NCBI GenBank assembly: GCA_023255625.1
Contig: JAHFLF010000001.1
Location: 431,771-495,770, forward strand
Direction of reading: 5' to 3'
Source of the DNA: Candidatus Harrisonbacteria bacterium
GTDB lineage: Bacteria; Patescibacteriota; Minisyncoccia; UBA6257; 1-14-0-10-44-23
Length of the DNA stretch: 64,000 nucleotides
Within the stretch, counting starts at the first letter, position 1; every line of letters begins with the position of its first letter. Shown here piece after piece: positions 34,284 to 55,692 of the stretch. The translations under genes and the position numbers were made by a program. The notes under the pieces were generated by a model. That model was not told the origin of the DNA, did no database searches, and saw only the letters and a program-made list of their open reading frames with translations.

Positions 34284-34345
34284 GAATTTCTAATTTCTAA
34301 TTTTCAATTTCTAAACAATGCTTAATGAATCAATTTCTAATGTGC
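34284..34345. repeat. GAAATT-type module, left flank of four-helix-bundle cassette
   Basis: gaatttctaatttctaattttcaatttctaaacaatgcttaatgaatcaatttctaatg between the ftsE stop and the cassette gene. Confidence 0.75.
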
Positions 34346-34352
34346 TAATGGC

Positions 34353-34697
34353 ATGCAGTACGATTTGGAAGAGCGGACAATGAAATTTAGCAAGAGTATC
34401 ATTCAACTTGCTAAGCATTGCAGGGGGAATGATATTGTAGCGCATATTATTTTACAGCTTGTCCGGGCGGCGACGAGCGTTGGAGCAAATTATCGCGAGG
34501 CAAACGGGGCCAGCTCAAAGAATGATTTTCGCAATAAGATTTATATTTGCCGCAAGGAGATTCAAGAAGCTGAATATTGGATAGTATTGTTGGTTGAGGC
34601 ATTGCCGATTTGTAAGCAAGAAGCTATGATTCTATACAAAGAAGCGCATGAGTTGTCTCTTATTTTTAATAAAATTTCTTCTACATTAAGAAATTAA
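34353..34697 (+). CDS. four-helix-bundle protein (23S rRNA intervening-sequence protein family)
   Basis: Conserved ..QLVRAATSVGANYREANGASSKNDFRNKIYICRKEIQEAEYWIVLL.. block of this family. Inserted between ftsE and ftsX. Confidence 0.75.
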   Translation: MQYDLEERTMKFSKSIIQLAKHCRGNDIVAHIILQLVRAATSVGANYREANGASSKNDFRNKIYICRKEIQEAEYWIVLLVEALPICKQEAMILYKEAHELSLIFNKISSTLRN

Positions 34698-34735
34698 AAA
34701 TTGTTTGAAAATTGAAAATTATAAATTGAAAATTA
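34694..34735. repeat. GAAATT-type module, right flank (inverted relative to left flank)
   Basis: aaattgtttgaaaattgaaaattataaattgaaaatt. Its reverse complement matches the left flank (aattttcaatt..caaacaat). Confidence 0.75.
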
Positions 34736-34744
34736 CCCACTCCC

Positions 34745-35653
34745 TTGGCCACAACATTTTTACGAATTCTAAAATACGGGTTTCAGAGTTTCTGGCGTAA
34801 CGGCTGGCTTTCGATGGCGACCGTCCTGGTTATGGTGCTTGCCCTTATGACAATGCAGGCGCTCATGCTTTTTAATGTCGGTACGACTACGGCCGTGGCC
34901 GCTATACAGGATAAAATTGATATCGCAGTTTATTTCAAACGAGCGGCCAGCGAGGATAGCATGCTGGCTCTCAAGAAAACTGTTGAACGGCTGCCGCAGG
35001 TAAAAAATGTTGAATATGTTTCTAGCGATGAGGCGCTTGCGGATTTTAAGCAGAGGCATTTAACCGATTTAACAATCAACCAGGCGTTGGCCGAATTAAA
35101 CCAAAACCCGCTGCCCGGATCGTTAAACATCAAGGCCAATGATCCAAATGATTACGCCCTGATTGCGGCATATCTTGATAAAAATGCTCCGGCCGGACTG
35201 ATCGAAAAAGTTACCTATAGCCAGCACAAAAACGCTATCGACCGGCTGAATAAATTTGTCGATACTCTGAACCGAATGGGGCTTGCGGTTACCTTGTTTT
35301 TGGCTTTTGCCGCCAGCTTAGTGGCCTTCAATACAATCCGGCTGGCGATTTATTCCAACCGCGACGAGATTGGTATTATGCGGCTAGTTGGCGGTTCGAA
35401 TATGTTTATCAAAGGGCCGTATCTGGTTACCGGGATTATGTATGGATTTTTTGGCGCGCTCGTAGCGATTATCTTGATGGCACCGATTGCCAATATTATT
35501 AATCCATATCTGGTTCGGCTAGTGCCGGAGGTTCAGTTGGAAACTTATTTTTATGCTCACATTTTTCCGCTTTTCGGCTATATGATGCTTTTCGGGGCAG
35601 GGTTGGGAATTATTTCCAGCTGGATAGCAACTCGGAGGTATTTGCGCGTCTAA
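34745..35653 (+). CDS. ftsX: cell division permease FtsX
   Basis: TM1 - large periplasmic loop - three C-terminal TMs, FtsX-like blocks. Partner of ftsE. Confidence 0.85.
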   Translation: MATTFLRILKYGFQSFWRNGWLSMATVLVMVLALMTMQALMLFNVGTTTAVAAIQDKIDIAVYFKRAASEDSMLALKKTVERLPQVKNVEYVSSDEALADFKQRHLTDLTINQALAELNQNPLPGSLNIKANDPNDYALIAAYLDKNAPAGLIEKVTYSQHKNAIDRLNKFVDTLNRMGLAVTLFLAFAASLVAFNTIRLAIYSNRDEIGIMRLVGGSNMFIKGPYLVTGIMYGFFGALVAIILMAPIANIINPYLVRLVPEVQLETYFYAHIFPLFGYMMLFGAGLGIISSWIATRRYLRV

Positions 35654-35758
35654 TAATTGCCCAGACGGCACCGTCCATATTTTTCTGGTGAAAAATCGGT
35701 CTATACTCTCGCGCCGTCGCGCTGCGAGAATTGCCGCTAGGGCAATTATTAGACGCGC
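35645..35758. repeat. structured repeat family 'GACGGCACC-core', copy B
   Basis: Flanks gcgtctaataattgccc / gggcaattattagacgc (includes the ftsX stop codon). Core nearly identical to copy A. Confidence 0.75.
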
Positions 35759-35796
35759 AAACTAGACCTCCTTCATAAAAAAGCGAGGGATTTTAC

Positions 35797-35927
35797 TCAA
35801 GATGAGCAGGGATACCTTTTACTGCTCCCTATGAGAAAAATTTTGCTGGTTTAGAAATTAGAAATTGAAAATTAGAGATTCCCGCAGGGTTTTTAACCGC
35901 AAAAGACGCGGTTAAAAACCCTGCGGG
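35797..35927. repeat. composite: CAAGATGAGCAGGGATACC hairpin motif, GAAATT module, and 20-bp terminator hairpin overlapping the stop of the converging surface-protein gene
   Basis: caagatgagcagggataccttttactgctccctatg (also at 31498..31535). gtttagaaattagaaattgaaaattagagatt. cccgcagggtttttaaccgc aaaagac gcggttaaaaaccctgcggg. Confidence 0.6.
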
Positions 35928-37495
35928 TCGTATCCTTCTTCTGCCGGAAGAATAGTTTTTTCTTTTTTAAATTTCCAAATTGCCAGCCAGCCGAACAAAG
36001 CAATGACGGCCAGGATGCCGCCGCCAACTCCAAATCGCAGTGCAATTTGTTTTTTGATGACGGTTATGCTTTGAGATGGAGCTACTTTCGTGTAGGTTTC
36101 ATCTGCACCAACACCGTAAACGATCACATGATGTACGCCGGAGGTCAGCCCGGGAATTTCTTTAGAATGTTCTCCGGCCGGTACTCTGATGCTCCTTTCT
36201 AAGTTATGGTCATAATCAAAAATATCGATGCGATAACCATTCATCGGTTCGCCATTTGACGGGCTTTGCCATATAAAATTAGTGTTATTACTGCGCATGC
36301 CCGGGCCAATAGTTAATTCCTGGCTCTGGCCGATTGTGACAGGAGCATTTCCGCTTCCTGGCGCTCCTGTATTCGAGTTTGTAGAAGCAGACTGCCCACC
36401 GGATGAGGGCGCTGCTGTGTTAGAATTTGCCGGCGGATTTGTCGATTGATTTGTTTGGGCTGGAGTATTTGTATTAGTTGGTGTAGTTGGCTGGGTGTTA
36501 TTGGCCGGTGGTTGCACTGCGTTGTTAGTCGGCTGCTGGCTGTTTGCCGGCGGTTGCGTATTAACGGGAGTTTGCTGGGAGGCGATTGGAGTGCTGAAGC
36601 CGATTGTGTATGTGGTTAAGATTATGCTTTCTCCCTGGTTGCTAAAAATATCTGCAAAATAATTTACTCCGGGTATCAGCCCGTTAACTGTGATTGTGTG
36701 TTCGAGTTCCAGGGTCGGGTCTGTGGCGCTCGTAAAAATAAAATTTGGATTGAGTTGTGTTCGGATAGAGACACGGGAGTCAGCGGCGATGTTTGTTGTC
36801 CAGGAAAAAGTTGCCGAGGTTGCCGTAGTGTTTACGACACGAGCGTTGGTTATAGTAACATAGGACTGCTGCGGTGTGCTGGCGACCGGGGTTGAGCTGG
36901 CGGTAATTTGATCCGGATCCGTAAAAATGTAGTCCGCGCCGCTCTCTGCGGGCGCATAGAGGGCAAGTTTAAAGGTAAAGGGTTGTAGAGCCGGCCCGAT
37001 TTTAGCCGCGCCATGACTATATTGGCTAACAAAGGTTTGGTTGTGATCAAGCGTTAAAATCCGGTCAGCGCTATACAGGCCAAAGTTGGGCAAATCTGAT
37101 TCTATCTGGAGCGTATATGTTCCTGTGGCGCTAATTGCTATCGGTGTAGTCAGATTCACATGGAATTTGTATCCTCCGGGAATTTCGGCCAGGTGAGGAA
37201 GCGTAACATTGCGTACGGCAAGCTGATGAACCTCATCAGAGAGTCGTAATGTGAGGGGCCCATCCTCGCCAGTGTTATCAACCCAGAGATCAAAACCCGT
37301 CATTAAAGCGTTTACTCCAGGCGCAAAAATTTCATAGACCGGCCCAGCAGCCGAGGAGAATTCAAACCGTTGCGAGGCCCAGCCGTCTGGGGCAAAGGCG
37401 AAAAAGACAGCGTCGGCGGCGAGCGCCGGAGCAGTAGACAGTAGTAAGTAGACGGTAGACAGTATGAGAATAAAAAAGCGAGATGGGCGGTTCAT
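35912..37495 (-). CDS. cell-surface protein: signal peptide, beta-rich (FN3-like) domains, Thr/Pro/Gln/Asn-rich linker, C-terminal TM anchor
   Basis: N-terminal signal peptide, long low-complexity PTQ/N linker, C-terminal hydrophobic helix followed by KFKKEK. Confidence 0.55.
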   Translation of the reverse strand: MNRPSRFFILILSTVYLLLSTAPALAADAVFFAFAPDGWASQRFEFSSAAGPVYEIFAPGVNALMTGFDLWVDNTGEDGPLTLRLSDEVHQLAVRNVTLPHLAEIPGGYKFHVNLTTPIAISATGTYTLQIESDLPNFGLYSADRILTLDHNQTFVSQYSHGAAKIGPALQPFTFKLALYAPAESGADYIFTDPDQITASSTPVASTPQQSYVTITNARVVNTTATSATFSWTTNIAADSRVSIRTQLNPNFIFTSATDPTLELEHTITVNGLIPGVNYFADIFSNQGESIILTTYTIGFSTPIASQQTPVNTQPPANSQQPTNNAVQPPANNTQPTTPTNTNTPAQTNQSTNPPANSNTAAPSSGGQSASTNSNTGAPGSGNAPVTIGQSQELTIGPGMRSNNTNFIWQSPSNGEPMNGYRIDIFDYDHNLERSIRVPAGEHSKEIPGLTSGVHHVIVYGVGADETYTKVAPSQSITVIKKQIALRFGVGGGILAVIALFGWLAIWKFKKEKTILPAEEGYDPQGF

Positions 37496-37523
37496 TTATT
37501 TATGATACCATGGGCAAGGATTT

Positions 37524-37647
37524 GTATCGGCCCCGCGGTTTTGCCGCAGACCGGCACCGGCTATCTTTTTCTGCTGAAAAAGCGCCTGCTCTCGGCCTCC
37601 TCGGCCTGCGAGAGTGCCGCCTAGCGGCAAAACCGCTGGGCCGATAC
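37524..37647. repeat. structured repeat family 'GACGGCACC-core', copy D (diverged)
   Basis: Flanks gtatcggcccc..gcggttttgccgc / gcggcaaaaccgc..gggccgatac. Core gaccggcaccggctatctttttctgctgaaaaagcg... with compensatory changes in the inner hairpin (ctttttc/gaaaaag versus atttttc/gaaaaat). Confidence 0.65.
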
Positions 37648-37655
37648 TGATAGCG

Positions 37656-38306
37656 TTAGATATTCTGGCGGTGGTAGTCGCCAAGGTGTGCGTGGTCGTT
37701 GAGTGTCACGATGTGCCAGTTTTTTCCGTCATAGTCAGCGACCGTGATGCCGGTATTATGCATTGAGGTAGTATTAAAAAGATCGCGGAACAGTTTTGCT
37801 GGAACTTCGGGGCCATGGATGATAGTTGCAAAAAGTACGCGCAGGAAGTGTCCGTGGCTGATCACCGCAATATTGTTATATGTTTGGTTGAGCGTTACGG
37901 CGAAATTTAAAAATGCAACTGCTCGGGCACGGACATCAATAAAGCGTTCTTCTGTGGTGTCTCGGAATTCTGGATCTGATAATTCTTTTTCAATCAGGAG
38001 GTCTTTTACTTTTTGGATTTCGGGGTTGTCGCGGGATTTTCCGGTGAGCACCGAGCCCCATTTTTTTTCAACAAGTAGGGGATTGTGTGTGATAGGAATT
38101 TTTTTGACCGCAGAAATATACTCTGCAGTTTGTTGAGCGCGTATATAAGGGCTTGCGAGAATATAATCAACGGGGATTGATTCAAAACGATGGGCTAAAA
38201 ACTCCGCCTGTTTCTTCCCGAGCGCCGTCAGATTTTCTTCAGGGCCTTGGAAAATATGCGTAAGATTACCCTCTGATTGACCATGTCTGACTAAGTAGAG
38301 CTTCAT
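37656..38306 (-). CDS. histidine phosphatase family protein (phosphoglycerate mutase-like)
   Basis: N-terminal LVRHGQSEGN (RHG catalytic motif) and a second His near the C-terminus (ISHGHFLR). Confidence 0.8.
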   Translation of the reverse strand: MKLYLVRHGQSEGNLTHIFQGPEENLTALGKKQAEFLAHRFESIPVDYILASPYIRAQQTAEYISAVKKIPITHNPLLVEKKWGSVLTGKSRDNPEIQKVKDLLIEKELSDPEFRDTTEERFIDVRARAVAFLNFAVTLNQTYNNIAVISHGHFLRVLFATIIHGPEVPAKLFRDLFNTTSMHNTGITVADYDGKNWHIVTLNDHAHLGDYHRQNI

Positions 38307-38309
38307 ACG

Positions 38310-40115
38310 TTATCTGCTTGCCCGCAGCGCGTTAATGGTTACTCCGACATCAATGATTTCTTGTATAGTAGCAGCAAGTATCGGAGTAATAAAGCCCGCG
38401 GCAGCAAAACCCATGCCAATCAGTGAGAGGCCGATGCCAAAACCGATACTCTGGAGCGCAATCTTTGTAGTTTTACGGGAAATAGCCAGTGTTTCGGTAA
38501 CGAGTGCAAGATCATGCCCGAGAATAGCAACACTTGCCGCCTCAATCGAAGCGCTATTTTCTGTACCGGAAAAAACAATGCCGGCATCGGCCAGGGCCAG
38601 AGCTGGTGCATCGTTGAGTCCGTCGCCGATCATAATCACTCGTTCGCCCGCATCACGAGCAGTTTTGACAATGGCAAACTTTTTTTCCGGCGTGGCGCGG
38701 GCATGAATGGTCATACCGTGGCCACCGAACAGGCGGTCGGCATTTTCCTGCGAGTCGCCGGTGATAAGTGCGATTTTATAGTTTTTAGAAAGCTCGGCAA
38801 GAAAGCCGCTGGCGTTCTTCTTCATCTGATCTGCGAAGAAAAATAGGGCGATGGGTATCTCTTCCTGACGCATTTCCAGCAAAATGCCACCTTCATAAAC
38901 TTTGCTGCTTTTATTAATCGTATAGCTTTTTCCGTCAACTGTGCCGGTGATGCCCTGGCCGATTATTTCACTCACATTGGTTGCGATGAGTTCCGGCAAG
39001 CTGCGCCTTGCGCGCTCGGCCATCATGGCGCGGGCGAGTGGATGGAGCGAATGCATCTCAATCGCCGCAGCAATAACAATCGCATGCTCTTCATCAATAT
39101 TCTTATCGTGCAATGTTACTTTTTCAAGCAGTGGTTCGCCGAGCGTGAGGGTACCGGTTTTGTCCAGAAAAATCGTAGTTGCGCTGCTTAGAATTTCCAT
39201 CACCGAGGGTTTTTTGATGATGATTGTTTTCTTCGCAGCGTGGCTCATACCGGCCAGAAAGGCGATGGGTGCGGCGATCAGAAGTGGGCAGGGAGTTGCT
39301 ATGGCGAGCACAGCCAGGGTGCGACTTATATCGCCAGTAAAAAAATAGGTGCCGCCGGAAATAACCAGCGTGGCAATGGTAAAGGGCCAGTTAAATTTTT
39401 CGGCATAGCGCACAATGCGGGCCGGAAATTGGCGACTCTGTGCTACCAGGTCTACAATTTTTTGGTAGCTGGAGGTGGCAAAGCTGCCGGCCGTTTCCAG
39501 TTCAAAAGAGGGGCCGATATTAACCACGCCGCTTTTGATAAATTCATTTTGCGTATGTTCAACCGGCATGCTCTCACCGGTTAAATTCGCCTCATTGACT
39601 GTTGCAGTGGTTGATTTTAAAAATCCATCCAGCGCCACCAGTTCGTTTGTTTTTACAAAAATCGTTGTTTTTTCCGGGATCTCCTGAATGGCAACTTCTT
39701 GGTATCCGGTTGCGGTTTTAACCAGACAAAATTTTGGGATGCCTTCTACTAAAGTTTTTAGAGAGGCCTCTGCTCGTTCGGCGCCAAACTGCTCAAGTGC
39801 GCCGGAGAGGGTAATCATGAGCGCCACAACCGCACCGGCGATATAATATTCGGGAGAGACAAGTGAGGTTGCCATTGCCAGCATGGCAATATAGTCTAGC
39901 GACCATCTTGCTTCGCGTATTTTTTGGACTGACTCCCAGAGTAACTTGCCAAGGCCGATGGCGATTGCCGTTAGGAGCAGGACATTTTTAGATAGGATTG
40001 CGCCAAAGAGTGCGAGCAGAAGAATCACTATTGGGACACGGAATTCTTTTCGGCGGATTATTGTAAGTACGAATGACATTGATTCAGTATACTCTGTTGC
40101 GGCGTAAGAATGCAC
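38310..40115 (-). CDS. P-type ATPase, P1B (heavy-metal transporting)-like, no N-terminal metal-binding domain
   Basis: DKTGTLT phosphorylation motif, GDGLNDAPAL, TGES-like actuator region, TM6 TPCP (xPC) motif at the usual CPC position. Confidence 0.85.
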   Translation of the reverse strand: MHSYAATEYTESMSFVLTIIRRKEFRVPIVILLLALFGAILSKNVLLLTAIAIGLGKLLWESVQKIREARWSLDYIAMLAMATSLVSPEYYIAGAVVALMITLSGALEQFGAERAEASLKTLVEGIPKFCLVKTATGYQEVAIQEIPEKTTIFVKTNELVALDGFLKSTTATVNEANLTGESMPVEHTQNEFIKSGVVNIGPSFELETAGSFATSSYQKIVDLVAQSRQFPARIVRYAEKFNWPFTIATLVISGGTYFFTGDISRTLAVLAIATPCPLLIAAPIAFLAGMSHAAKKTIIIKKPSVMEILSSATTIFLDKTGTLTLGEPLLEKVTLHDKNIDEEHAIVIAAAIEMHSLHPLARAMMAERARRSLPELIATNVSEIIGQGITGTVDGKSYTINKSSKVYEGGILLEMRQEEIPIALFFFADQMKKNASGFLAELSKNYKIALITGDSQENADRLFGGHGMTIHARATPEKKFAIVKTARDAGERVIMIGDGLNDAPALALADAGIVFSGTENSASIEAASVAILGHDLALVTETLAISRKTTKIALQSIGFGIGLSLIGMGFAAAGFITPILAATIQEIIDVGVTINALRASR

Positions 40116-40145
40116 ATTGTAAAAGTGTAGTATATACTAAAATAT

Positions 40146-41156
40146 ATGAAGAAAGCTGCCCTATGGCGGGCTACCGGTATTTTTGTGCTGGCGATTGGCG
40201 TCGGGTTTTTTACTGGTTACAAGATTCCGCGTGCCGGGACATTTGATGTTCAATCAAGCCAGACCCTTCGAGAACATGGCGGATATCAATATATTAGTAA
40301 GCTGCTGGCCTGCGATTTTCCGGTCAGCCAAGACACCCGTAAATATGGAGGATTGACTGATTCGGTAAACGATTTTATCGCAAAAGGAAAGGCAAATCAT
40401 GAATTGAGCCGAATGTCTGTTTACTTTCGAGACCTGACTGACGGTCGCTGGATTGGTGTCGGGGAGGATGATCAATATGACCCAGCCAGTCTCTTTAAAA
40501 TTCCGACACTAATTGCTTATTACAGGTTAGCAGCAACTGAACCGGATATTTTTTCCAGGCAGATTCAGTTTGTTTTTGCTGATGATAATTCAAAGACACA
40601 GAATATAAAACCGAGCGAGGTCTTACAAAACGGGGAGCGGTATACGGTTGATGATCTGCTGAACCGGATGATTATATATTCAGATAATGCCGCTACCAAT
40701 TTACTAATTAAAAATATTGATAAAGTTTATCTTGAAAATGTCTTTAGAGATCTGGAGTTAAGTTCGGCTGTTCTGACTGATGCCGGCGAATCAATGTCTG
40801 CAAAATCATTTTCACTCTTTTTCCGAGTTTTGTATAACGCTTCATACTTAAGTCGAGACCGTTCAGAGAAGGCACTTGCTCTTCTTGCCAAGACTGATTT
40901 CCAGGATGGATTTCAGGCCGGTATTCCGACCGGTGTCCCGATCGCACATAAGTTCGGGGAGAAGACATTTGTGAATCCGCAGGGTATACCGCTTTCCGCG
41001 CAACTACATGAATGCGGGATTGTATATGCGTCCGGGCACCCATATTTACTCTGCGTGATGACCGAAGGGCAGAGCTTGGATAAGCTGAAGACGGTGTTGC
41101 GGAATGTTTCATCTATGGTATATCAGACGGTCGTTGCGGCTGGTATCACAAAGTGA
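40146..41156 (+). CDS. serine hydrolase, class A beta-lactamase / PBP-related
   Basis: Signal anchor. SxxK (ASLFK), SDN (YSDNAATN), KxG (HKFGEK) triad pattern. Confidence 0.55.
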   Translation: MKKAALWRATGIFVLAIGVGFFTGYKIPRAGTFDVQSSQTLREHGGYQYISKLLACDFPVSQDTRKYGGLTDSVNDFIAKGKANHELSRMSVYFRDLTDGRWIGVGEDDQYDPASLFKIPTLIAYYRLAATEPDIFSRQIQFVFADDNSKTQNIKPSEVLQNGERYTVDDLLNRMIIYSDNAATNLLIKNIDKVYLENVFRDLELSSAVLTDAGESMSAKSFSLFFRVLYNASYLSRDRSEKALALLAKTDFQDGFQAGIPTGVPIAHKFGEKTFVNPQGIPLSAQLHECGIVYASGHPYLLCVMTEGQSLDKLKTVLRNVSSMVYQTVVAAGITK

Positions 41157-44676: not shown

Positions 44677-44704
44677 CGATCACTGTGCGCAGTATTTTTT
44701 ACCT

Positions 44705-44828
44705 GCAGTTTGCCGTCAGACGGCACCGGGGTTATTTTTCTGCTGAAAAATCCCCCTACATCTCCCGCCGTCGCGGTCCGATAGTTGCCGCGTAGACGGC
44801 AAACTGCAGGTAAAAAATTAACGGCTCG
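44705..44828. repeat. structured repeat family 'GACGGCACC-core', copy C
   Basis: Flanks tttttacctgcagtttgccgtc / gacggcaaactgcaggtaaaaaa. Lies between convergent genes and overlaps the 3' end of the dgkA-like ORF. Confidence 0.7.
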
Positions 44829-48667: not shown

Positions 48668-48672
48668 AACGA

Positions 48673-49706: not shown

Positions 49707-50372
49707 TTAGACCCGTTTGTTTTTAGATTTCTGAACTTTTCTTGGGAAACCAATATAAGCTCGGATAGTCTTTTTGCCGCTAATTGCTAGGGCGACAGAT
49801 CTCATGCAACCATCATCAATATCACCTTTCATTTTTCGTTTGAGTCCTTTTCTGCCGCGCGTGCCAGTCCCGCCCTTGAAGATTATCGGAAACAAGTACT
49901 TCTCTTTTTGCAAAATATGTACATTCGTTTTCAGAATATTCGGAATGCTATACCTTGATCGCTTTTTCAAAATTTTTGGATCGTGTTCTAGCGCAGATTT
50001 TACATGTGCAGCAGTTTGGGCAAGGGAACCCTTGGTCCATGCAAGAGGCAACCCACCTGCTTTTTTCCAAACACCAATTTCATCTACTGATGCTGTACCA
50101 ATATACCAATCATAATCGTCGTAGGCCCTCAACCTTTTTGCCCACTCGTTTTTAATAATTCGGTTGAGGGTTGATATCGGCATCTTCAGAGCTTTTTTCT
50201 TTGCAGTTTTGAGTTTTCTCCTAAAGACATGCTCCGGTACAAGCGTCAGATGTTTTCTCCTGTCTTTTTTGGCGCTAATAAGATCGGCAACAACAAAAGC
50301 TCGCTTAACTTCGATGCCGTTTACTGATTCGAGGATTTTCATGTGTTGGGATGTGGGGCGCTGCCCGACCAC
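49707..50372 (-). CDS. hypothetical 221-aa basic protein, no recognised domain
   Basis: Long ORF abutting the DUF1801 gene stop-to-start (50372/50373). Lys/Arg-rich. Confidence 0.5.
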   Translation of the reverse strand: MVGQRPTSQHMKILESVNGIEVKRAFVVADLISAKKDRRKHLTLVPEHVFRRKLKTAKKKALKMPISTLNRIIKNEWAKRLRAYDDYDWYIGTASVDEIGVWKKAGGLPLAWTKGSLAQTAAHVKSALEHDPKILKKRSRYSIPNILKTNVHILQKEKYLFPIIFKGGTGTRGRKGLKRKMKGDIDDGCMRSVALAISGKKTIRAYIGFPRKVQKSKNKRV

Positions 50373-50807
50373 TTATTTCCTGCGATTTACTGCGAGTTTG
50401 ATGATTTTTTCAAGCTCTTTTTCGTCGATATCGGAAAGTTTTTTGATATAGAGACATCCACCCCCTTCTTTATACTTACCTAATTTTAAGAGAAAATCGT
50501 TTTTCCCTTTATCTTCTTTCAAGCCATTGATGGTCATTTTGAAAATTTTTAAGCCATAGAGAGCAATGTTTTGTTTGCGTGGCGAAAGACCTATCATCAT
50601 CCACTCACCCTCTTTGCCGTTTGCGTAGGTGTACTTTTTGCGACCGAAACCGACGATTGATGTGCCCCACATTTCTGGCTTAGCCTTAGTTGCCCGCTCC
50701 ATCATTCCGGAAATGACGGAACAATCTTTGCGCTTCTCTATATCTTTGATTGTGCTCAAAAATTTCTTCACACTTACCTTATTCACTTTTGTTTTTAATT
50801 CTGGCAT
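50373..50807 (-). CDS. DUF1801 (YdhG-like) domain protein
   Basis: Family-like C-terminal block LGKYKEGGGCLYIKKLSDIDEKELEKII; family assigned from memory. Confidence 0.5.
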   Translation of the reverse strand: MPELKTKVNKVSVKKFLSTIKDIEKRKDCSVISGMMERATKAKPEMWGTSIVGFGRKKYTYANGKEGEWMMIGLSPRKQNIALYGLKIFKMTINGLKEDKGKNDFLLKLGKYKEGGGCLYIKKLSDIDEKELEKIIKLAVNRRK

Positions 50808-50846
50808 AGATGATCTTTTGTTGACGATATGGGACGGAGCGGGAAT

Positions 50847-51461
50847 CTATTTGCTCGATAAAACCCCTAAGGCCTTAAGGTTTTCTATCAATGAGTCGTA
50901 ATCCTTAAAAAGGATAGGATGAAATCCAATCTCTTTTGAGGGCAATAGACTTTGCGGACTATCATCAATGAATATTAGTTCGTGCGGCGATACGCCAAGA
51001 TTTTTTGCGAATAATTCAAAAATTTGTCTGCTTGGTTTTTGCATGCCAACTTCTGCGGATACTATCAAGGTATCAAAATGTTTATCCAGCCCAATCGCAC
51101 GCATGTGAACCGCTGCTTCTTTGCGGTTATTACTTAAGAGTCCTACTTTGTAGTCTAGCGATCTCAGCTTATCAACAAGATCAAGCATCATCGGATCTAT
51201 CTCTGGCTCTGTGTGCGCTTGGAATTTTTTGAGAAGATCAGCAAATTTTTCCGGAACTCTTAATTTTTCTGTTAAAATTTTGGCAAAATTTTCAATTGAT
51301 ACTCCCTCAATGTTGATAAGATGGTTATTTTCAAAATACACTTTGCGCACTCTATCAACAGGGAGCTTAAGGGCAGAGGCGATGCCGTCAATATAACCAT
51401 AACCCACCATGCTTGTGGTCATTACACCTCCGTAATCAAATCCGATTGCTTTGAATTTCAT
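50847..51461 (-). CDS. HAD superfamily hydrolase (subfamily IA)
   Basis: Motif I (FDYGGVM), motif II (LSNN), motif IV (IFIDDS). Confidence 0.8.
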   Translation of the reverse strand: MKFKAIGFDYGGVMTTSMVGYGYIDGIASALKLPVDRVRKVYFENNHLINIEGVSIENFAKILTEKLRVPEKFADLLKKFQAHTEPEIDPMMLDLVDKLRSLDYKVGLLSNNRKEAAVHMRAIGLDKHFDTLIVSAEVGMQKPSRQIFELFAKNLGVSPHELIFIDDSPQSLLPSKEIGFHPILFKDYDSLIENLKALGVLSSK

Positions 51462-51623
51462 GCGTTGACCACGTCGGTTGCGGAGCTTTAGCTTCCAATC
51501 AGTATCCTCCTTCGCTTGATTCTAATCAAGCCCCTGAAGGACGCGATAAGCACCACGGTAACCTTTATTTGTATCTACAACGGGTCCTGGAAATTGAGCC
51601 GTAAAAATGATATAATTACAACT

Positions 51624-52175
51624 ATGACTACTATTGACGAAGATAGCAAAGAGCGGGCTTTAAAACTTTTTGGGAGCCCTGAAATTGAAGGTTTTGAATT
51701 GGGCACTCTGAAGGGGTTGCAGCAAATTCACACCTATCTTTTTGGCGGCCTTTATGATTTTGCCGGGCAGATTCGCAGTAAGGACATCAGCAAGGGCGGT
51801 TTTCGTTTTGCTTCACATTTATATTTAATAGAGAGTTTAGCAAAGGTGGAGAAAATGCCGGAGAGTAGTTTTGAGGATATTGTGGCTAAATATGTGGAGA
51901 TGAACATCGCTCATCCATTTATGGAGGGTAATGGGCGCAGTATGCGGATTTGGTTAGATTTGGTATTAAAAAAGAATCTGAAAAAGTGCATAGATTGGGC
52001 CAGAATCGACAAGCTGGATTATTTGAACGCAATGCAGCGAAGCCCAGTTAATAACCTAGAGATCCGAGAACTTTTGCGTGGGGCTTTAACTGAAAAAATC
52101 AACGACCGCGAAGTGTATATGAAGGGCACTGAGCAGTCCTACTATTACGAAGAGGTGGATTTGTATAAGGCGTAA
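51624..52175 (+). CDS. Fic/Doc family protein
   Basis: Canonical Fic motif [12 protein letters not shown] (HPFx[DE]GNGR). Start taken at MTTIDED. Confidence 0.8.
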
Positions 52176-52308
52176 AACCGGGTCAGTGCCGCTTTCGAAT
52201 CCATCTCCTTATTTGTAGAATATCGCAACAATCTGTCCGATGGAGCCGCTAAGATGTTGACGATCTGGGACGAAGTTGGAACATTTCTTAAAGAATCACT
52301 AAATGGAA

Positions 52309-52812
52309 TTACTTCAGCGCTCGTAATCCCTCAATATCACGAGCATCCCAATCGTCCCGCATGATCATCTCTTTATTCTTGATGATGAGATCCTTAGCCA
52401 TAAGCGGTAAGGAGAATCCGTGGAAATCAACCATTTCGACCGCAGGAAAACCTTGATCGTAAAAGGGTTTATAGTCTCCAAGCTCTTTGTCAAAAATCTT
52501 TAGATCGGCCATCGTACAAATATCGACAATCTGATTTGAGATGGTGATCTCCATATTGTAGTTATCGTAGGATTTGCTTACAAAGTGGATCAGTGGCTGC
52601 GTTATATAAGGACTGAGTTTCTTTATCATATCTGTGAACTTATGATCGTCTTTAGTTATGTCTATATCAATGTCGATATCAGTCAGTTTTCTTTTAACGC
52701 CATATACATAGCATGCGAAACCACCTGTGATCACCCATTTACTATCAAGCCCTTCTATTTCAGGGATTATTTTTGCAAGCGTATCACACGCTGCCTGTTC
52801 TTCGGAATTCAT
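52309..52812 (-). CDS. nucleotidyltransferase domain protein (Pol-beta-like NTase fold)
   Basis: GGFACYVYGVKRKLTDIDIDID fits the G[SG]x9-13DxD NTase signature. Confidence 0.55.
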   Translation of the reverse strand: MNSEEQAACDTLAKIIPEIEGLDSKWVITGGFACYVYGVKRKLTDIDIDIDITKDDHKFTDMIKKLSPYITQPLIHFVSKSYDNYNMEITISNQIVDICTMADLKIFDKELGDYKPFYDQGFPAVEMVDFHGFSLPLMAKDLIIKNKEMIMRDDWDARDIEGLRALK

Positions 52813-52867
52813 TGTTAAATATTATCATTCATCGATGCGACTTGAGCGGAATAACACAGTTCATTTG

Positions 52868-52939
52868 TTGGGGGACAGGGACTCGAACCCCGAACTTCGC
52901 CTCCAGAGGGCGACGTGTTACCAATTGCACCATCCCCCA
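52868..52939 (-). tRNA. tRNA-Gln (anticodon CTG)
   Basis: Hand fold: U1-A72 acceptor (TGGGGGA/TCCCCCA), 3-bp D-stem, anticodon arm TCGCC-CTCTGGA-GGCGA, T-arm CGGGG-TTCGAGT-CCCTG. CCA not encoded. Confidence 0.75.
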
Positions 52940-52986
52940 ATTGGTCAATGTATCTTAGGGTATTTCCGGAAAGAAATCAATTTTTT

Positions 52987-53031
52987 GTTGTACTATGCCC
53001 TTATTCGCGCGAATAAGGGCATAGTACAAAT
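52987..53031. repeat. 44-nt perfect palindrome upstream of tRNA-Gln
   Basis: ttgtactatgcccttattcgcg cgaataagggcatagtacaa. Confidence 0.7.
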
Positions 53032-53094
53032 TGACCATGTCGTGCGTTTGGCGTAGGTTATGGAGACCGGACTCAAACTAACAAAGGAGGAGCA

Positions 53095-53721
53095 TTGCGC
53101 GCAGCATTCGCAATCATCGCTATGTTCCTAATGGTAGGAGCGAGCGGTTGGTGTTGCTACCGGATCTGGAGCAAGAAAGATCCGCCTCTTCCAATTACCA
53201 CCTGGCTCATCTTCAGTATGGTGGTGCCGGCCGTGGCTCTGGCGGCCGTACTACAAACAGGCATTGAGAGGTGGGGGAACGCGCAGGCGGTTGTCGACGC
53301 GATGTCAGTTGTCTGCGTGCTTGGTTTCATGCTGGGCACCGGGCATTACCGGATCGGCGTCAGCGCGCTGGAGCGGCGGGTCAACATTCTCTGTGTTGTA
53401 CTGGCGATCCTGGTTGTTGTCTATTGGTCATGTACCAGTGCACACCACTACGCTAATCTTGCGCTGCAGGGCGTGATGGTCGTGAGCTACATCCCGCTCT
53501 GGTTTGAGCTACTGACCGCGAAGCGGAATCCTTACCGGTTTGGTTTCTGGTTCACGCTGTTCATTCTTTCGGTGATCAGCTTCGAACCTGCCTACGAGGA
53601 TTGGTCGGAAAACGGTGAGACCATGCAGCTCTGGTACGCCGGGCGCGCCACCGTTTCGACTCTGTCGGTGCTATTCCTGATGCGGCGGCTCGTTCGCAGG
53701 GAGCAGCGCAACGCACTATGA
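53095..53721 (+). CDS. hypothetical multi-TM membrane protein (GC-rich gene)
   Basis: Five or six hydrophobic helices. GC3-rich codon usage distinct from neighbours. Confidence 0.5.
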   Translation: MRAAFAIIAMFLMVGASGWCCYRIWSKKDPPLPITTWLIFSMVVPAVALAAVLQTGIERWGNAQAVVDAMSVVCVLGFMLGTGHYRIGVSALERRVNILCVVLAILVVVYWSCTSAHHYANLALQGVMVVSYIPLWFELLTAKRNPYRFGFWFTLFILSVISFEPAYEDWSENGETMQLWYAGRATVSTLSVLFLMRRLVRREQRNAL

Positions 53722-53919
53722 GGCCCGCTTCGAGGAGCGGGCCTTGCGATTTTCAAAAGTAATCGCGAATGAAAAACCAGCGAAATATCGCGAATGGGAA
53801 GAGAAAGAGGTGCGTTTTTCGTGTTACAATAAAGGAGTTCCGGTTCTACCCGGCTTTTTCCTACTGGCCGCTGCTTATTTTTACTACTCCCTACCACCTA
53901 AAACCTATAACCTATCCCA

Positions 53920-55158
53920 ATGGCCGAAGGCGAAGCAAAAATAGACATGACAGTTATTGAGGCGGAGGTGCAAAAGCACCCTCCGTTTCGTTCGATTATT
54001 AAAATTGTCGATGCTCTGGTGGCACAGGCCTTTTTTGCCCGCAGTTCTGATATCCATCTTGATCCAGAGGAGAAGAAGTTGCGCGTCCGGTTTCGGATCG
54101 ATGGCGTGCTGCACGATATCTATTCATTTCCGAAAGAGCTGCATCAGGAAATTATTACCCGTATTAAAGTGCTGGCCGCGATGCGCACCGACGAGCACCA
54201 GGCCGCGCAGGATGGTCGCATGCGAATTGCAATTCCAGACAGCCCGCCGGTGGATGTGCGTGTTTCTATCACGCCGACTTATTTTGGCGAGAACTGCGTG
54301 ATGCGACTTTTAATCAGCCGCGCCGATGATTTTACGCTGAAGGATTTGGGCTTTTCCCCGCATAATTTAGCGATTATTGCCAAGGCCATGAAAAAGCCGT
54401 ATGGGCTGATGCTGGCGACCGGGCCGACCGGGTCTGGTAAGACGACGACTTTGTATATGATTCTTAAAGAATTAAATAAGCCGGAGATTTCGATTATCAC
54501 AATTGAAGATCCGATTGAGTATTCGCTGCCGGGCGTTGATCAAATCCAGGTTAACGCTAAAACCGGACTAACTTTTGCGAATGGTTTGCGTTCTATCTTG
54601 CGTCAGGATCCGAACACCGTGATGGTCGGTGAAATTCGTGATGGGGAGACGGCTTCGATTGCCGTAAACGCCGCCATGACCGGCCACCTGGTGCTTTCAA
54701 CTTTACATACTAACGATGCGCCAACTACCTTGCCGCGATTACTTGATTTAGGCGTTGAGCCATTCTTAATTGCCTCAACTTTGAATATCGCCATCGGTCA
54801 GCGTTTAGTGCGCACAATTTGCACTGATTGCAAAGTGAAAAAAGAATTAACCGATGTTGAACTTAAAACATTGACCGAGGCGTTCCCAGCGGAGTTGCTG
54901 CAGAATAACCGGGCTTTTTATCGGGGAGAGGGCTGCAAACGGTGCAGCAGCAGTGGTTATCGCGGTCGAGTTGGTATTCATGAGGTATTGGAGATTAACG
55001 AAGAACTGCGCGTTATGATCATGCGCCGGGCGAATGCCGACGAGATGCGTGCGGCGGCGATAAAACAAGGTATGATTACTATGACGGTAGATGGTTTTAA
55101 TAAGGCAGTTGCCGGACTAACGACTCTCGAAGAGGTGCTACGCGTGTTCCATGAGTAA
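53920..55158 (+). CDS. pilB: type II/IV secretion system ATPase (GspE/PilB family), short form
   Basis: Walker A GPTGSGKTT, Asp box, Walker B, His box, and tetracysteine CTDCK..CKRC motif region. Confidence 0.85.
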   Translation: MAEGEAKIDMTVIEAEVQKHPPFRSIIKIVDALVAQAFFARSSDIHLDPEEKKLRVRFRIDGVLHDIYSFPKELHQEIITRIKVLAAMRTDEHQAAQDGRMRIAIPDSPPVDVRVSITPTYFGENCVMRLLISRADDFTLKDLGFSPHNLAIIAKAMKKPYGLMLATGPTGSGKTTTLYMILKELNKPEISIITIEDPIEYSLPGVDQIQVNAKTGLTFANGLRSILRQDPNTVMVGEIRDGETASIAVNAAMTGHLVLSTLHTNDAPTTLPRLLDLGVEPFLIASTLNIAIGQRLVRTICTDCKVKKELTDVELKTLTEAFPAELLQNNRAFYRGEGCKRCSSSGYRGRVGIHEVLEINEELRVMIMRRANADEMRAAAIKQGMITMTVDGFNKAVAGLTTLEEVLRVFHE

Positions 55159-55261
55159 TCGCTAATATCGCAAATAAAGGGCAGGAATATCGCCAATGGA
55201 TGCATGATCAAGAAGTAATCGCTAATATCGCAAATAAAGGGCAGGAATATCGCCAATGGAT
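55154..55261. repeat. two direct ~47-nt units (agtaatcgctaatatcgcaaataaagggcaggaatatcgccaatggat), left flank of GxxExxY cassette
   Basis: Unit 1 overlaps the pilB stop. Unit 2 supplies the ATG of the cassette gene. A diverged third copy lies at ~53748..53795 upstream of pilB. Confidence 0.8.
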
Positions 55262-55648
55262 ACTGCTGAAAATACTCTTGTTTTCCCAGAATTAAGCTAT
55301 CAAGTTGTTGGAGCGGCTTTCGATGTATTTAACGAGCTTGGTTGGGGATATAAAGAAAAAGTATATGAGCAAGCTCTTTTGTTAGAGCTGCAAAAATTTA
55401 GGTTGCCGATACGATCTCAAGTTTACATTCCATTACAATATAAAGAAAATATAATCGGTAAGTTTTTCGCAGATATTATTGTTGACGATAAAATTTTGAT
55501 TGAGCTTAAGATTGTTTCGCAATTGGGTTATGTACATATCAAACAAATATATCCTTATCTAAAAGCTGCTAGGTTTAAACTGGGTATTTTGATATACTTT
55601 ACTAAAGATGGTGTTAAGTACAGGAGAATTTTGAATCCGGAAGTTTAA
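55256..55648 (+). CDS. GxxExxY family protein (second paralog)
   Basis: ELSYQVVGAAFDVFNELGWGYKEKVYEQAL contains the GxxExxY signature. Inserted between pilB-like and pilC-like genes. Confidence 0.75.
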   Translation: MDTAENTLVFPELSYQVVGAAFDVFNELGWGYKEKVYEQALLLELQKFRLPIRSQVYIPLQYKENIIGKFFADIIVDDKILIELKIVSQLGYVHIKQIYPYLKAARFKLGILIYFTKDGVKYRRILNPEV

Positions 55649-55692
55649 TTTGCGATATTTTTAAATAATTAGCGATATTAGCGATTACTCCT
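55649..55692. repeat. inverted copy of the 'gtaatcgctaatatcgc' unit (right flank of cassette)
   Basis: tttgcgatatttttaaataattagcgatattagcgattactcc; reverse complement contains gtaatcgctaatatcgc. Confidence 0.7.

Follow-up and report, generated by a model that had tools for sequence, protein, structure and literature searches.

Three tiny genes in the genome of an ultra-small (CPR) bacterium each lie in a hairpin-forming cassette, and we consider it probable that they are the ORFs of compact, promoter-less selfish cassettes, built as left arm, small ORF, right arm and lodged between cistrons. The stretch of DNA analysed, termed the window, is 64,000 nucleotides long. The units, of ~450-560 bp, fill short spacers between co-transcribed genes, are oriented with the operon, and carry arms in which short subrepeats, specific to each protein clade, form inverted arrays. 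They probably belong to one kind of element with the ORF-bearing intervening sequences (IVSs) of 23S rRNA, but with an intercistronic location instead of one in rRNA. A preliminary description had reported selfish-looking genes with inverted repeats between normally adjacent genes, and a check of each part against the window sequence confirmed the observation, with one correction on the spread of the GAAATT module.

The gene termed FHB (34353..34697, plus strand, as are all features unless stated otherwise) encodes a 114-residue protein of the 23S-rRNA-IVS protein / Avd-like family. It matches PF05635 at 62 bits (cut-off 33.8), TIGR02436 at 78 bits (cut-off 24) and PDB entry 2rld at an E value of 2e-13, and has more than 1000 homologues in Patescibacteria at 59-68% identity. 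Its neighbours are FtsE (33580-34263; TIGR02673, 276 bits, above cut-off) and FtsX (34745-35653; FtsX_ECD and FtsX domains). The left arm (34283..34336), four or five 7-nt AATTTYY units with AAACAAT at the end, begins 20 nt past the ftsE stop codon; the right arm (34691..34736), ATTGTTT followed by GAAAATT units, finishes 8 nt ahead of the FtsX TTG start. Over 42 nt (34285-34326 and 34693-34734) the arms are 83% complementary, which together with the profile matches substantiates the reported four-helix-bundle gene between inverted GAAATT-type arms. In all 32 relatives with ftsE upstream the ftsE-ftsX gap is gene-free and spans 2-138 nt, as against 481 nt in the window. The formula of 7-nt AATTTYY units plus AAACAAT holds for the FHB clade: the same arm type flanks homologues at loci L064, L072, L082 and L101, and FHB genes with GAAATT arms also occur between T4SS pilins, between giant surface proteins and at a pilC-pilin junction. 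Across five loci mean arm identity is 85% (left) and 92% (right), while synonymous sites of the ORF are saturated (pS 0.67-0.94) and pN is 0.14-0.26. A gene-less hairpin at the ftsE-ftsX junction of L004 aligns to the window arms in 7-nt register.

Gx1 (55256..55648) is a GxxExxY gene for a 130-residue protein, matching PF13366/TIGR04256 (118 bits). Its product has a minimal PD-(D/E)xK nuclease fold; the AlphaFold2 model (pLDDT 91) gives generic PD-(D/E)xK matches. Residues E34, D73, E83, K85 and Q97 show no variation among 27 sequences, and the catalytic set E34, D73, E83 and K85 of this predicted nuclease is intact. The gene separates a T2SSE ATPase (pilB, 53920-55158) from a T2SSF platform gene (pilC, 55695-56960). 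The left flank (55142..55255) consists of two tandem 60-nt units, each AGTAATCGC then AATATCGC-type subrepeats; unit 1 overlaps the pilB stop (55156-55158) and unit 2 reaches into the cassette ATG, which derives from the 60-nt tandem duplication (55142-55201 / 55202-55261). The right flank (55648..55691), with ATTTGCGATATT inside and GCGATATTAGCGATTACTCC outside, stops 3 nt short of the pilC ATG (55695). The sequence GTAATCGCTAATATCGC is found at 55155 and 55215 and, on the minus strand, at 55672 (3 matches, 0.22 expected). These copies and the duplication bear out the earlier statement that the left unit overlaps the pilB stop and supplies the cassette ATG. A solo left unit of this type (AGTAATCGCGAAT...GCGAAATATCGCGAAT) lies 5′ of pilB (53754..53800).

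Gx1-clade arms have the cap AGTAATCGC plus two ~12-nt units of the form ..AATAnnnCGAAT. The terminus AGTAATCGC is present in all 16 distinct anchorable loci of the 21 examined; its GAG TAA part belongs to the host gene in the window, since every relative has a PilB with the C-terminus VFHE*. Clade members with termini GAGTAATCGC...GCGATTACTC sit at pilB-pilC, prfB-ftsE, pheS-pheT, permease-response regulator, x-SpoU and other junctions. At least 10 junction types are in use, prfB-ftsE at 6 loci plus a contig-edge copy and pilB-pilC three times. Occupancy is sporadic: in the three closest relatives, with PilC 72-79% identical, distances of 14, 59 and 65 nt separate pilB from pilC, with no gene between, and only one of ~24 GTDB relatives in which both prfB and ftsE were found has a GxxExxY gene there. 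Protein identity does not cluster by insertion site, which argues against simple vertical descent. The nearest sequence to Gx1 (L037, 63%) is sited elsewhere, and between the window and L038 the Gx proteins are 57% identical, PilB 48% and PilC 29%. The 24-bp outer stem is 87.8% paired, compared with 75.5±1.4 in shuffles, and has 49 double-change cells against 24.1±3.6, neither value being reached in any of 500 shuffles; slid controls give 29-45%.

Gx2 (26509..26904; 131 residues, PF13366/TIGR04256, 112 bits) occupies the spacer between a SIMPL and a DivIC-like gene. Its left flank (26449..26508) has an outer subrepeat TAGAGCTACGGATAACGAAT, within which the SIMPL stop codon falls, then a GC hairpin and an inner subrepeat ACGAAAGTACGAAT. 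The right flank (26905..27009) holds ~1.7 inverted copies of a 62-nt unit, its final base being the A of the downstream ATG (27009). The same unit forms a gene-less tandem array of 3.7 copies in left-arm orientation (22267..22495), between a possible mreD (21800-22267) and the gene for PBP2 (22502-24367). The seven copies of AGCTACGAATAACGAA against 0.02 expected (four in the array at 22271-22472, one left of Gx2 and two inverted on the right) corroborate the inverted flanks and tandem array described earlier. Gx2-clade arms are made of ..ACGAAT units, and a Gx2-like gene with ACGGATAACGAAT arms lies within a beta-oxidation operon. Orthologues in L092 and L093 are 71-72% identical and share the junction of the window, which points to age and vertical inheritance for at least some cassettes. 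Between L092 and L093 dN/dS is ~0.04; the outer stems of the window and of these two loci differ on both arms.

Arms also occur with no gene between them. The GAAATT arm core is found five times in the window, against 0.00 expected. A hairpin of two GAAATT arms (20930-20966 and 20997-21031) with a 30-nt loop fills the mreB-mreC spacer exactly (20930..21032). It had been likened to an empty site; the hairpin is real, but it is better read as a gene-less derivative than as an unoccupied target. A second gene-less pair (59890..60022) contains an inserted GC hairpin, and its right arm codes for the beginning and leader (FRNWKLEIKNS) of a pilin-like gene. Solo modules lie at 59234..59278 (right-arm type), where the module encodes the pilin leader MKCLFRNSKLEIKNS and the N_methyl motif follows at residues 19-42; at 56969..57013, in the leader of a 753-residue pilin-like gene; at 35837..35881 (right-arm type), in a convergent intergenic region; and on the minus strand at 63961..63999, at the window edge just 5′ of a minus-strand ORF. 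The repeat had been called cassette-specific; it does flank the FHB cassette, but its presence at these five further sites, three of which lie within coding regions for pilin-like leader peptides, shows a wider distribution. Leaders of the genes orthologous to the pilin gene at 59234..59278 lack the module in L096 and L097 and carry a different, genome-specific repeat in L098. Gene-less and solo arms of the cassette types are also found in L101 and L047. Being of the same types and in the same genomes as the cassettes, these hairpins and solo arms resemble non-autonomous derivatives.

How far do these properties set the cassettes apart from their surroundings? For a control set of 293 genes, drawn from the window and 33 related loci, the median flank-to-flank stem score is 19 and the 95th percentile 26; cassettes score 62, 57, 43 and 40, four of the top five values. 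The predicted fold pairs both flanks in all three window cassettes. The upstream gene is co-oriented with the cassette at 27 of 27 determinable loci (18 Gx1-clade, 5 FHB and 4 Gx2-clade). At these conserved junctions the inserts were gained in particular lineages: the genes are not kept in place among relatives, there being none between ftsE and ftsX in 32 relatives or between pilB and pilC in the three closest. Gene and arms are passed on as one unit at many different junctions, and homologues of each gene in unrelated metagenomes have the same arm type at other junctions (prfB-ftsE, pheS-pheT, pilC-pilin and others). The preliminary description had allowed that the repeats might be generic filler; they are not, as arm type tracks protein clade across unrelated genomes and junctions. 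Purifying selection acts on arms and proteins alike, the arms being 85-92% identical, or covarying between sides, despite saturated synonymous sites in the ORFs. Stem mismatches of G·U and A·C type are equally frequent (16 and 18 for Gx1, 8 and 8 for FHB), so that nothing points specifically to selection acting on RNA of the sense strand. A target-site duplication, suggested earlier as something to look for, was not found; comparison of the occupied pilB-pilC junction with the empty one of L096 reveals just a replaced 14-nt spacer. We saw no near-identical cassettes at two sites, identical proteins recurring only in the same context across samples, and found no empty allele within one population.

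The closest known counterparts are rRNA IVSs, which have inverted repeats at their boundaries, are cleaved by RNase III and bear an ORF of the PF05635 family (PMC4990558); the literature views them as selfish (PMC4990558, PMC11270868). ORF-bearing IVSs in 23S/16S rRNA include those of Leptospira and Coxiella (S23p) and are also reported from CPR rRNA genes. The cassettes share with them the PF05635 family, terminal inverted repeats forming a long stem around the ORF, co-orientation with the host transcript and a sporadic distribution suggesting horizontal gain. Unlike IVSs, they sit in intercistronic spacers of protein-coding operons and not in rRNA helices, their arms are clade-specific subrepeat arrays of conserved sequence, and gene-less or solo arms are dispersed in the genome, some of them read as part of pilin leaders. 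Processing by RNase III, a feature of IVSs, is putative here. By the TIGR04256 description, GxxExxY genes occur in IVSs too. REP/REPIN-RAYT systems likewise place a single small gene between inverted copies of a genome-dispersed palindromic repeat and have lineage-specific repeats and gene-less inverted doublets in operon spacers. RAYTs are HUH Y1 transposase homologues, whereas the cassettes encode either a PD-(D/E)xK nuclease or a helical bundle of Avd type; they lie within operon junctions and themselves differ between close relatives. Terminal inverted repeats with internal subrepeats, comparable to arrays of transposase binding sites, presence/absence polymorphism and apparent non-autonomous gene-less derivatives recall TIR transposons and MITEs; the cassettes, however, lack a DDE, HUH, serine or tyrosine enzyme, show no target-site duplication, are very small and are strictly co-oriented with host transcription. 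Integron cassettes are also promoter-less, co-oriented small ORFs with hairpin-forming imperfect inverted repeats, yet have one attC at one end, form an array beside an integrase and insert at attI, whereas the window cassettes have arms on both sides, are scattered in operons as single units and have no integrase nearby. Avd, the accessory protein of diversity-generating retroelements, shares the PF05635 fold family with FHB, a homologue of 2rld (see also PMC10053308). The FHB gene, unlike that of Avd, is bracketed by inverted arms; the gene table lists no reverse transcriptase within 6 kb of it, and no homologue of the one reverse transcriptase tested was found in the window.

We consider it unlikely that the small proteins are ordinary host regulators, binding DNA or RNA and regulating themselves through flanking operator arrays, with the extra arms as a regulon. 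Like binding sites, the arms consist of short subrepeats set in arrays and conserved in sequence, solo arms stand right at gene starts, pilin genes above all, in both the window and L101, and selection on the proteins is strongly purifying. Against this, the closest relatives lack the genes at the same junctions, the genes are spread over many unrelated junctions in different genomes and split tightly coupled pairs such as ftsE-ftsX and pheS-pheT, and rRNA intervening sequences are known to carry members of these families. That the arms before the pilin, mreC and PBP2 genes are a regulon with no selfish relics among them is equally doubtful: arm sequence is translated in pilin leaders and the relatives' orthologous leaders differ, which looks like insertion and not like a conserved operator. 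Free-standing homing endonuclease genes include the phage seg/mob genes, and PD-(D/E)xK homing enzymes are exemplified by I-Ssp6803I. Like these, GxxExxY cassettes place a small nuclease gene patchily between conserved genes whose sequence could support recombinational spread. The GxxExxY genes might then home, by cleavage and repair, to homologous junctions only, with the arms taking no part in DNA movement and acting solely as an RNA-level neutraliser (a stem with RNase III), and with FHB a separate matter. Intact catalytic residues, sporadic reoccupation of the same highly conserved junctions (6-7 times for prfB-ftsE, three for pilB-pilC), absence of a detected target-site duplication, shared operon orientation and a predicted fold joining both flanks in three of three window cassettes are consistent with this; even so, we give it a low probability. 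A stem that served purely for RNase III would not require sequence conservation, but the AGTAATCGC/GCGATTACT termini and the FHB arms are strongly conserved, and G·U mismatches are not in excess over A·C. At least 10 junction types are occupied, and the gene-less and solo arms at further sites go beyond what homing alone explains. Homing endonuclease genes are not known to have inverted arms. Nor can a homing nuclease apply to the four-helix-bundle cassette, which has the same architecture and no nuclease.

Still less probable, indeed hardly so, is that the arms are genome-wide REP/MITE-like palindromic repeats moved by another factor, the small genes being passengers tolerated in hairpin loops. 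These genomes are rich in intergenic hairpins of genome-specific subrepeats (L004, L008, L016; the window families at 13454, 9687 and 31484), and arms do undergo tandem duplication; but arm type follows protein clade across different genomes, even across phyla, unrelated hairpin families in the window have no such genes, and high stem scores in the control set are confined to these gene families.

The comparative data support selfish cassettes of a miniature mobile kind, mobility itself being what we infer from their distribution. Both proteins fall outside the known classes of transposase and recombinase, and with no catalytic motif in FHB there is no obvious mechanism of movement common to the two families. 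The encoded protein would recognise the arm subrepeats of its own cassette. Pairing of the arms would take place in the polycistronic transcript, by analogy with rRNA IVSs, in which RNase III cuts the stem, or in DNA as hairpins, or in both; it would loop out the insert and bring the upstream stop beside the downstream start, so that insertion would stay nearly harmless. Spread would involve insertion where genes adjoin, together with recombination via the highly conserved genes on either side, and in GxxExxY cassettes the intact nuclease may assist. Searches of Rfam, PADLOC, PHROGs and literature gave no description of such cassettes, and the earlier term 'undescribed' reaches only as far as those searches. 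Since each gene family keeps its own arms across distant genomes, the cassettes resemble the suspected selfish inserts of rRNA genes, housed in ordinary operons.

The window, part of a 117.6-kb metagenomic contig (ENA ERZ27280176, k141_3786079), is from a Patescibacteria/CPR bacterium, of the Paceibacteria/Parcubacteria type by its nearest GTDB relatives. The gene at 34353-34697 lies between ftsE and ftsX and encodes a four-helix-bundle protein (FHB; PF05635/TIGR02436). The other two encode GxxExxY proteins (PF13366/TIGR04256). Gx1, at 55256-55648, is placed between the genes for a T2SSE ATPase and a T2SSF platform protein (pilB|pilC), and Gx2, at 26509-26904, between those for a SIMPL/DUF541 protein and a weak DivIC-like protein. 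These identities, assigned in the preliminary description, hold at the curated profile cut-offs. FHB scores 62.2 bits against PF05635 (cut-off 33.8) and 77.9 bits against TIGR02436 (cut-off 24) over residues 6-112, and matches an uncharacterised protein, the five-chain PDB entry 2rld, with an E-value of 1.9e-13. The two GxxExxY proteins score 117.5/118.5 and 110.6/111.9 bits against PF13366/TIGR04256, above the cut-offs. The three are the sole PF05635 or PF13366 members within the window.

Residues G31, E34, D73, E83, K85 and Q97 do not vary among 27 GxxExxY sequences, and Y37 hardly does; in a separate alignment of 35 sequences Y37 is invariant. An AlphaFold2 model (pLDDT 91) predicts a minimal PD-(D/E)xK fold. 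A structure search with this model returned only generic matches at a TM-score of about 0.5 (Cas4 SSO0001, lambda exonuclease and a tRNA-splicing endonuclease), and these PD-(D/E)xK relatives give no hint of the substrate; a sequence search of the PDB returned nothing informative. Values of pN are 0.07-0.26 with saturated pS in both families, and dN/dS is approximately 0.04 between the Gx2 homologues in loci L092 and L093. Judged from these substitution patterns, the FHB and GxxExxY families are under purifying selection. One gene of the Gx1 clade (L047, 3001-3387) has an in-frame TAA at codon 4 (MEL*NKNILYPDLSY...) and would be either a gene with a non-canonical start or a fresh pseudogene.

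Each gene is bracketed by its own inverted repeat, as had been described. The FHB arms, of GAAATT type, are 42 nt each and 83% complementary. Gx1 has GTAATCGCTAATATCGC units on both sides, as two direct copies to the left and a single inverted copy to the right. Gx2 lies between inverted copies of a 62-nt unit which, again as first reported, also forms a 3.7-copy tandem array. This array is at 22267-22495, just upstream of PBP2. Motif counts exceed those in dinucleotide shuffles for the GAAATT arm core (5 against 0.00), the Gx1 unit (3 against 0.22) and the Gx2 unit (7 against 0.02). In minimum free energy folds the flanks pair around the ORF in each cassette, with z-scores of -1.2, -2.7 and -5.8 for FHB, Gx1 and Gx2, respectively. 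As a control, flank-to-flank complementarity was scored for 293 genes from the window and 33 related loci. The median stem score is 19 and the 95th percentile 26; cassettes score 62, 57, 43 and 40 and make up four of the top five. The other high score belongs to a TrpR-like gene in L008 and is a false positive, the palindrome copies there being direct and the arms not inverted.

The arms are conserved within each protein clade. A metagenome scan with Gx1 yielded approximately 20 distinct loci with proteins 45-63% identical, in which the inverted arms carry the conserved termini (G)AGTAATCGC ... GCGATTACT(C). Both termini are present in 16 of the 21 distinct Gx1-clade loci examined, those of the window and L028 included, and in most of the remainder a flank-to-flank stem is still visible. 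Each side holds two subrepeats, for example TAATAATGCGAAT, GAATATACGAAT, AAATATACAAAT and TAATATCGCAAAT, which vary from locus to locus, yet the two sides of one locus match. When 16 loci are aligned on their termini, over 24 pairs, 87.8% of cells are paired as opposed to 75.5 ± 1.4% after shuffling, and there are 49 double-change cells as opposed to 24.1 ± 3.6; none of 500 shuffles reached either value. Slid controls of this stem are 29-45% paired.

Homologues of FHB, 63-68% identical, occur in four other contexts (between T4SS pilin genes, between giant surface proteins at two loci, and at pilC|pilin) with the same GAAATT arms as in the window, AATTTTCAATTTCTAATTTTCAAACAAT ... ATTGTTTGAAAATTAGAAATTGAAAATT. 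Over 36 nt the pairwise identity of these arms is 85% on the left and 92% on the right, with the adjacent ORFs at a saturated pS of 0.67-0.94. Across the Gx2 clade the inner subrepeat ACGAAAGTACGAAT is retained; on both arms the outer stem differs between loci, reading TAGAGCTACGGATAACGAAT in the window and TAAATCGACGAATTACGAAT in L092. A Gx2 homologue with 51% identity, inside a beta-oxidation operon, a setting unlike that of CPR genomes, is enclosed by a 36-bp stem containing ACGGATAACGAAT. In this comparison, the decisive one, the association of repeat and gene that had been proposed is thus borne out in all three families: the arm type is specific to the protein clade, and gene and arms behave as one unit.

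When were these units acquired? Among GTDB species representatives a scan with FtsX gave 33 loci (37-81% identity), and in all 32 that have ftsE the ftsE-ftsX gap is 2-138 nt with no gene between; in the window it is 481 nt. L004, the closest relative (FtsE 93% identical), has a gene-less hairpin of 106 nt at this junction, the arms of which align to the FHB arms of the window in the same 7-nt register. In the next relative, L005 (FtsE 88% identical), the gap is 17 nt. The simplest history would have the FHB insert gained by the last ancestor shared by L004 and the window genome, and the ORF later lost in L004. The pilB|pilC gap measures 14, 59 and 65 nt, without a GxxExxY gene, in the three relatives nearest by PilC (identities of 79, 72 and 72%), one of which belongs to the MAG of L004. 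The comparison of synteny called for at the outset therefore favours insertion at ftsE|ftsX and at pilB|pilC. Gx2 differs in that its two closest homologues (71-72% identical) occupy the same SIMPL|DivIC-like junction; this cassette is therefore older and vertically inherited at least within that group. The search for target-site duplications gave a negative answer, with none at any cassette boundary, nor in the comparison of the occupied pilB|pilC junction with the empty one in L096, where the spacer is CTATTTATTTTTAT.

Cassettes of the Gx1 clade occupy at least ten kinds of junction. They include prfB|ftsE (six loci, and L005 with a right end at the contig edge), pilB|pilC (three loci), pheS|pheT, permease|response regulator, and positions upstream of a SpoU methyltransferase and of a nucleotidyl-transferase, among others. 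In GTDB relatives with both genes the prfB-ftsE gap is usually -4 to 143 nt, and only L028 has a GxxExxY gene there. The identities of the proteins do not group by insertion site. Gx1 of the window is closest to the protein of L037 at prfB|ftsE (63%), and that of L044 to those of L039 and L043, both at other sites; the window and L038 share the pilB|pilC site, and their GxxExxY proteins are 57% identical, against 48% for PilB and 29% for PilC. This pattern speaks for repeated gains, in which certain junctions are possibly preferred, over a single ancient insertion at each site.

Cassette and upstream gene point the same way in all 27 loci for which this could be determined (18 of the Gx1 clade, five FHB and four of the Gx2 clade); the downstream gene is on the opposite strand only in L039, among 19 determinable Gx1-clade loci. 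The cassettes fill the entire spacer. The right terminus of the Gx1 type lies 1-6 nt ahead of the downstream ATG, and the left terminus often doubles as the upstream stop codon, the TAA of AGTAATCGC being in frame in eight loci; in three loci the upstream ORF extends a few codons into the left arm. In the window the GAG TAA is native pilB sequence, since PilB ends in VFHE* in all relatives.

Inserts at prfB|ftsE in L018, L020 and L025 were set aside as they hold an unrelated coiled-coil gene without arms. This gene, conserved in one clade of relatives and encoding about 110-140 residues, is preceded by a promoter-like TTGACTTT motif. Gene-less hairpins with other genome-specific subrepeats are also seen at prfB|ftsE, in L008 (3115-3300; TAGCGACTAG/CTAGTGGCTA) and in L016 (ACTAATGCATACGAAT/ATTCGTAGATTAGCATTA), and in many CPR genomes hairpin elements are drawn to junctions of these same kinds. 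Identical proteins in more than one context would suggest recent mobility, but P0090, P0049 and P0044 recur across samples in the same context only. L068 differs downstream of the right arm, with the caveat that this 746-nt contig may be an assembly chimera at the repeat. The arms do break assemblies: L003 ends within a left arm and many homologues are on contigs shorter than 3 kb. A scan of viral contigs with the FHB protein found nothing, and two exact matches to arm motifs in such contigs were dismissed as chance in AT-rich phage DNA.

Arms are also found without a gene. The GAAATT hairpin that had been likened to an empty site is present at 20930-21032, where it fills the mreB|mreC spacer, and a second gene-less pair of such arms occurs at 59890-60022. 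Solo GAAATT arms are located at 35837, 56969, 59234 and 63961, and a solo left unit of Gx1 type at 53754-53800. The Gx2-type tandem array at 22267-22495 likewise counts among these non-autonomous copies. Elsewhere, L101 has a gene-less GAAATT hairpin between two pilin genes (3530-3665), and L047 a solo copy of its own Gx1-type left arm in the ftsE|ftsX spacer (4139-4180). Three copies in the window are translated. In three consecutive pilin-like genes (56964-57040, 59235-59300 and 59879-60060) a GAAATT arm encodes the cleavable leader, with a KLEIKN motif, as in MKCLFRNSKLEIKNSAANAAAG|FTLIE (N_methyl motif at residues 19-42). In the closest relatives, L096 and L097, the leaders of the orthologous genes are unrelated to these; pilin leaders of L098 (4047-4130 and 5869-5960) are encoded by that genome's own CTACG-type repeat. 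These differences show that arm sequences arrive in new positions as DNA and are tolerated if the leader is cleaved off afterwards; new pilin leaders appear to have been created by repeat insertion.

The window holds further repeats and small genes. A hairpin element separate from the cassettes is present in four copies (13454-13572, 35641-35761, 37524-37647 and 44695-44790), with a conserved core of about 77 nt, GACGGCACCG..TTTTTCTGGTGAAAAA..CGCCGTCGCGCTGCGAGAATTGCCGC, that matches no Rfam family. Its outer stems vary between copies and pair within each copy; at 35641 the last codons and the stop of ftsX form part of the left stem. Perfect or near-perfect intergenic hairpins of 26-31 bp at 9687-9766, 18779-18853, 18861-18941 and 62646-62719, some with the loop core GGCCGGGCTCACCCTGCGGGATGGCC in common, form another family and are possibly terminators. 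The 36-nt sequence CAAGATGAGCAGGGATACCTTTTACTGCTCCCTATG occurs in two identical copies, downstream of prfB (31504-31539, embedded in a larger 32-bp hairpin at 31484-31559) and of ftsX (35798-35833), and in a third, 75% identical, near a tRNA (29919-29954). Just downstream of the Gx2 cassette a 95-residue GIY-YIG ORF (Pfam; about 27577-27864, minus strand) adjoins a tRNA (27516-27586, minus strand) and may be another small selfish-type nuclease gene. Two adjacent ORFs of some 150 residues (61624-62070 and 62162-62635), which follow the pilin cluster and are probably tandem paralogues, share a 177-nt direct repeat (61639-61815 and 62207-62383, 81% identical). Upstream of the pil cluster, in a low-GC stretch, is a Fic/DOC family gene (PF02661; 51516-52175).

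Do the arms act as RNA or as DNA? Selection for a stem in the sense transcript is expected to leave an excess of G·U over A·C mismatches. In the anchored, ungapped stems the counts are 16 and 18 for Gx1 and 8 and 8 for FHB, and with no such asymmetry we make no claim of selection on a sense RNA stem. The mismatches in the FHB arms are mostly swaps between the 7-mer variants AATTTTC and AATTTCT, so the arms resemble inverted arrays of protein-recognition units rather than sequences tuned for perfect pairing. They are also conserved beyond the needs of an RNase III substrate, which points to a sequence-specific reader, and because the arm type follows the protein clade the most economical candidate is the protein of the cassette itself. 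From the co-orientation, and from arms that abut the upstream stop and the downstream start, we infer that a role at the RNA level would also fit, with the insert looped out as in rRNA intervening sequences (IVSs).

The initial observation is confirmed, and the evidence supports its reading as discrete cassettes with cognate arms, gained at operon junctions, over ordinary host genes with chance repeats. [quoted passage not shown] The cassettes share with IVSs the ORF families, a long terminal-inverted-repeat stem around the ORF, the sporadic distribution and the orientation. An IVS is defined by its location in an rRNA gene, whereas the cassettes are flanked by protein-coding genes, and an Rfam gathering scan of the whole window found no rRNA and no informative family; nor did an E-value scan near ftsX give an informative match. 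We rate the cassettes as an IVS-type element outside rRNA.

Other known systems agree in single respects. Transposons with terminal inverted repeats and MITEs share those repeats, but the cassettes are without a target-site duplication or a transposase of known class and their ORFs are only PF05635 or PF13366. The same Pfam result bears on REPIN-RAYT systems, in which a gene likewise lies between inverted copies of a dispersed palindromic repeat and gene-less doublets occur elsewhere; RAYT is a homologue of HUH Y1 (IS200/IS605-like) transposases. A free-standing homing endonuclease gene resembles the putative nuclease-fold GxxExxY ORFs, sporadic and set between conserved genes, a comparison that does not extend to FHB. 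The likeness to integron cassettes is again partial and a defining feature fails. PADLOC and PHROGs models, which cover anti-phage defence and phage proteins, gave no significant family, the one partial match scoring 16 bits. The diversity-generating retroelement (DGR) protein Avd is a member of the FHB family. Avd is marked by an adjacent reverse transcriptase and a template/variable repeat pair; FHB has no reverse transcriptase within 6 kb in the gene table, where its neighbours within ±6 kb are VanW, RF, HisKA, a response regulator, FtsE/X, fn3, a phosphatase and a P-type ATPase; a tblastn search with one reverse transcriptase from a relative had no match anywhere in the window. In the MAG of the closest relative a reverse-transcriptase gene (RVT_1), followed by seeming tRNA-like sequence, is found just upstream of pilB (L097, 1-921), and the window has no counterpart to it. 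No description of such intercistronic cassettes was found in the searched literature, which as a negative is weak evidence.

A more ambitious proposal, which we consider rather doubtful when taken as a whole, is that the cassettes and the ORF-bearing rRNA IVSs constitute one previously unrecognised class of prokaryotic mobile element. The factor for mobility or maintenance would be the small protein, an Avd-like helical bundle or a minimal PD-(D/E)xK nuclease, with no canonical transposase. This protein would read the subrepeat arrays in the hairpin-forming arms, and the element would survive in essential transcripts because the arms loop it out. Gene-less derivatives would then give rise to genome-specific hairpin repeats, and even to novel leader peptides of pilins. 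In a bolder variant the excised stem-loop RNA would be the transposition intermediate and FHB would act like Avd, with a reverse transcriptase supplied in trans.

PF05635 (outside DGRs) and PF13366 are very large families whose function is, to our knowledge, unknown and whose members carry no annotation beyond 'four helix bundle protein' or 'GxxExxY protein', and we know of no resolution of the question of IVS mobility, which dates from the early 1990s. An old and unproven suggestion is that the IVS ORF serves mobility, and the hypotheses of the IVS as a mobile element are attributed to Burgin et al. 1990 and Ralph & McClelland 1993 (PMC4990558). Cognate conserved arms and the colonisation of operon junctions give a testable handle, in protein/arm pairs, in empty and occupied junctions and in a simple reporter design, with the potential to make a decades-old question about IVSs, together with two large uncharacterised families, accessible to experiment. 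The cassettes would account for why CPR metagenome assemblies break so often and yield short contigs, for where the genome-specific intergenic hairpins of reduced CPR genomes come from and for the odd repeat-encoded leader peptides of pilins, and would show how an insert can sit harmlessly between translationally coupled essential genes.
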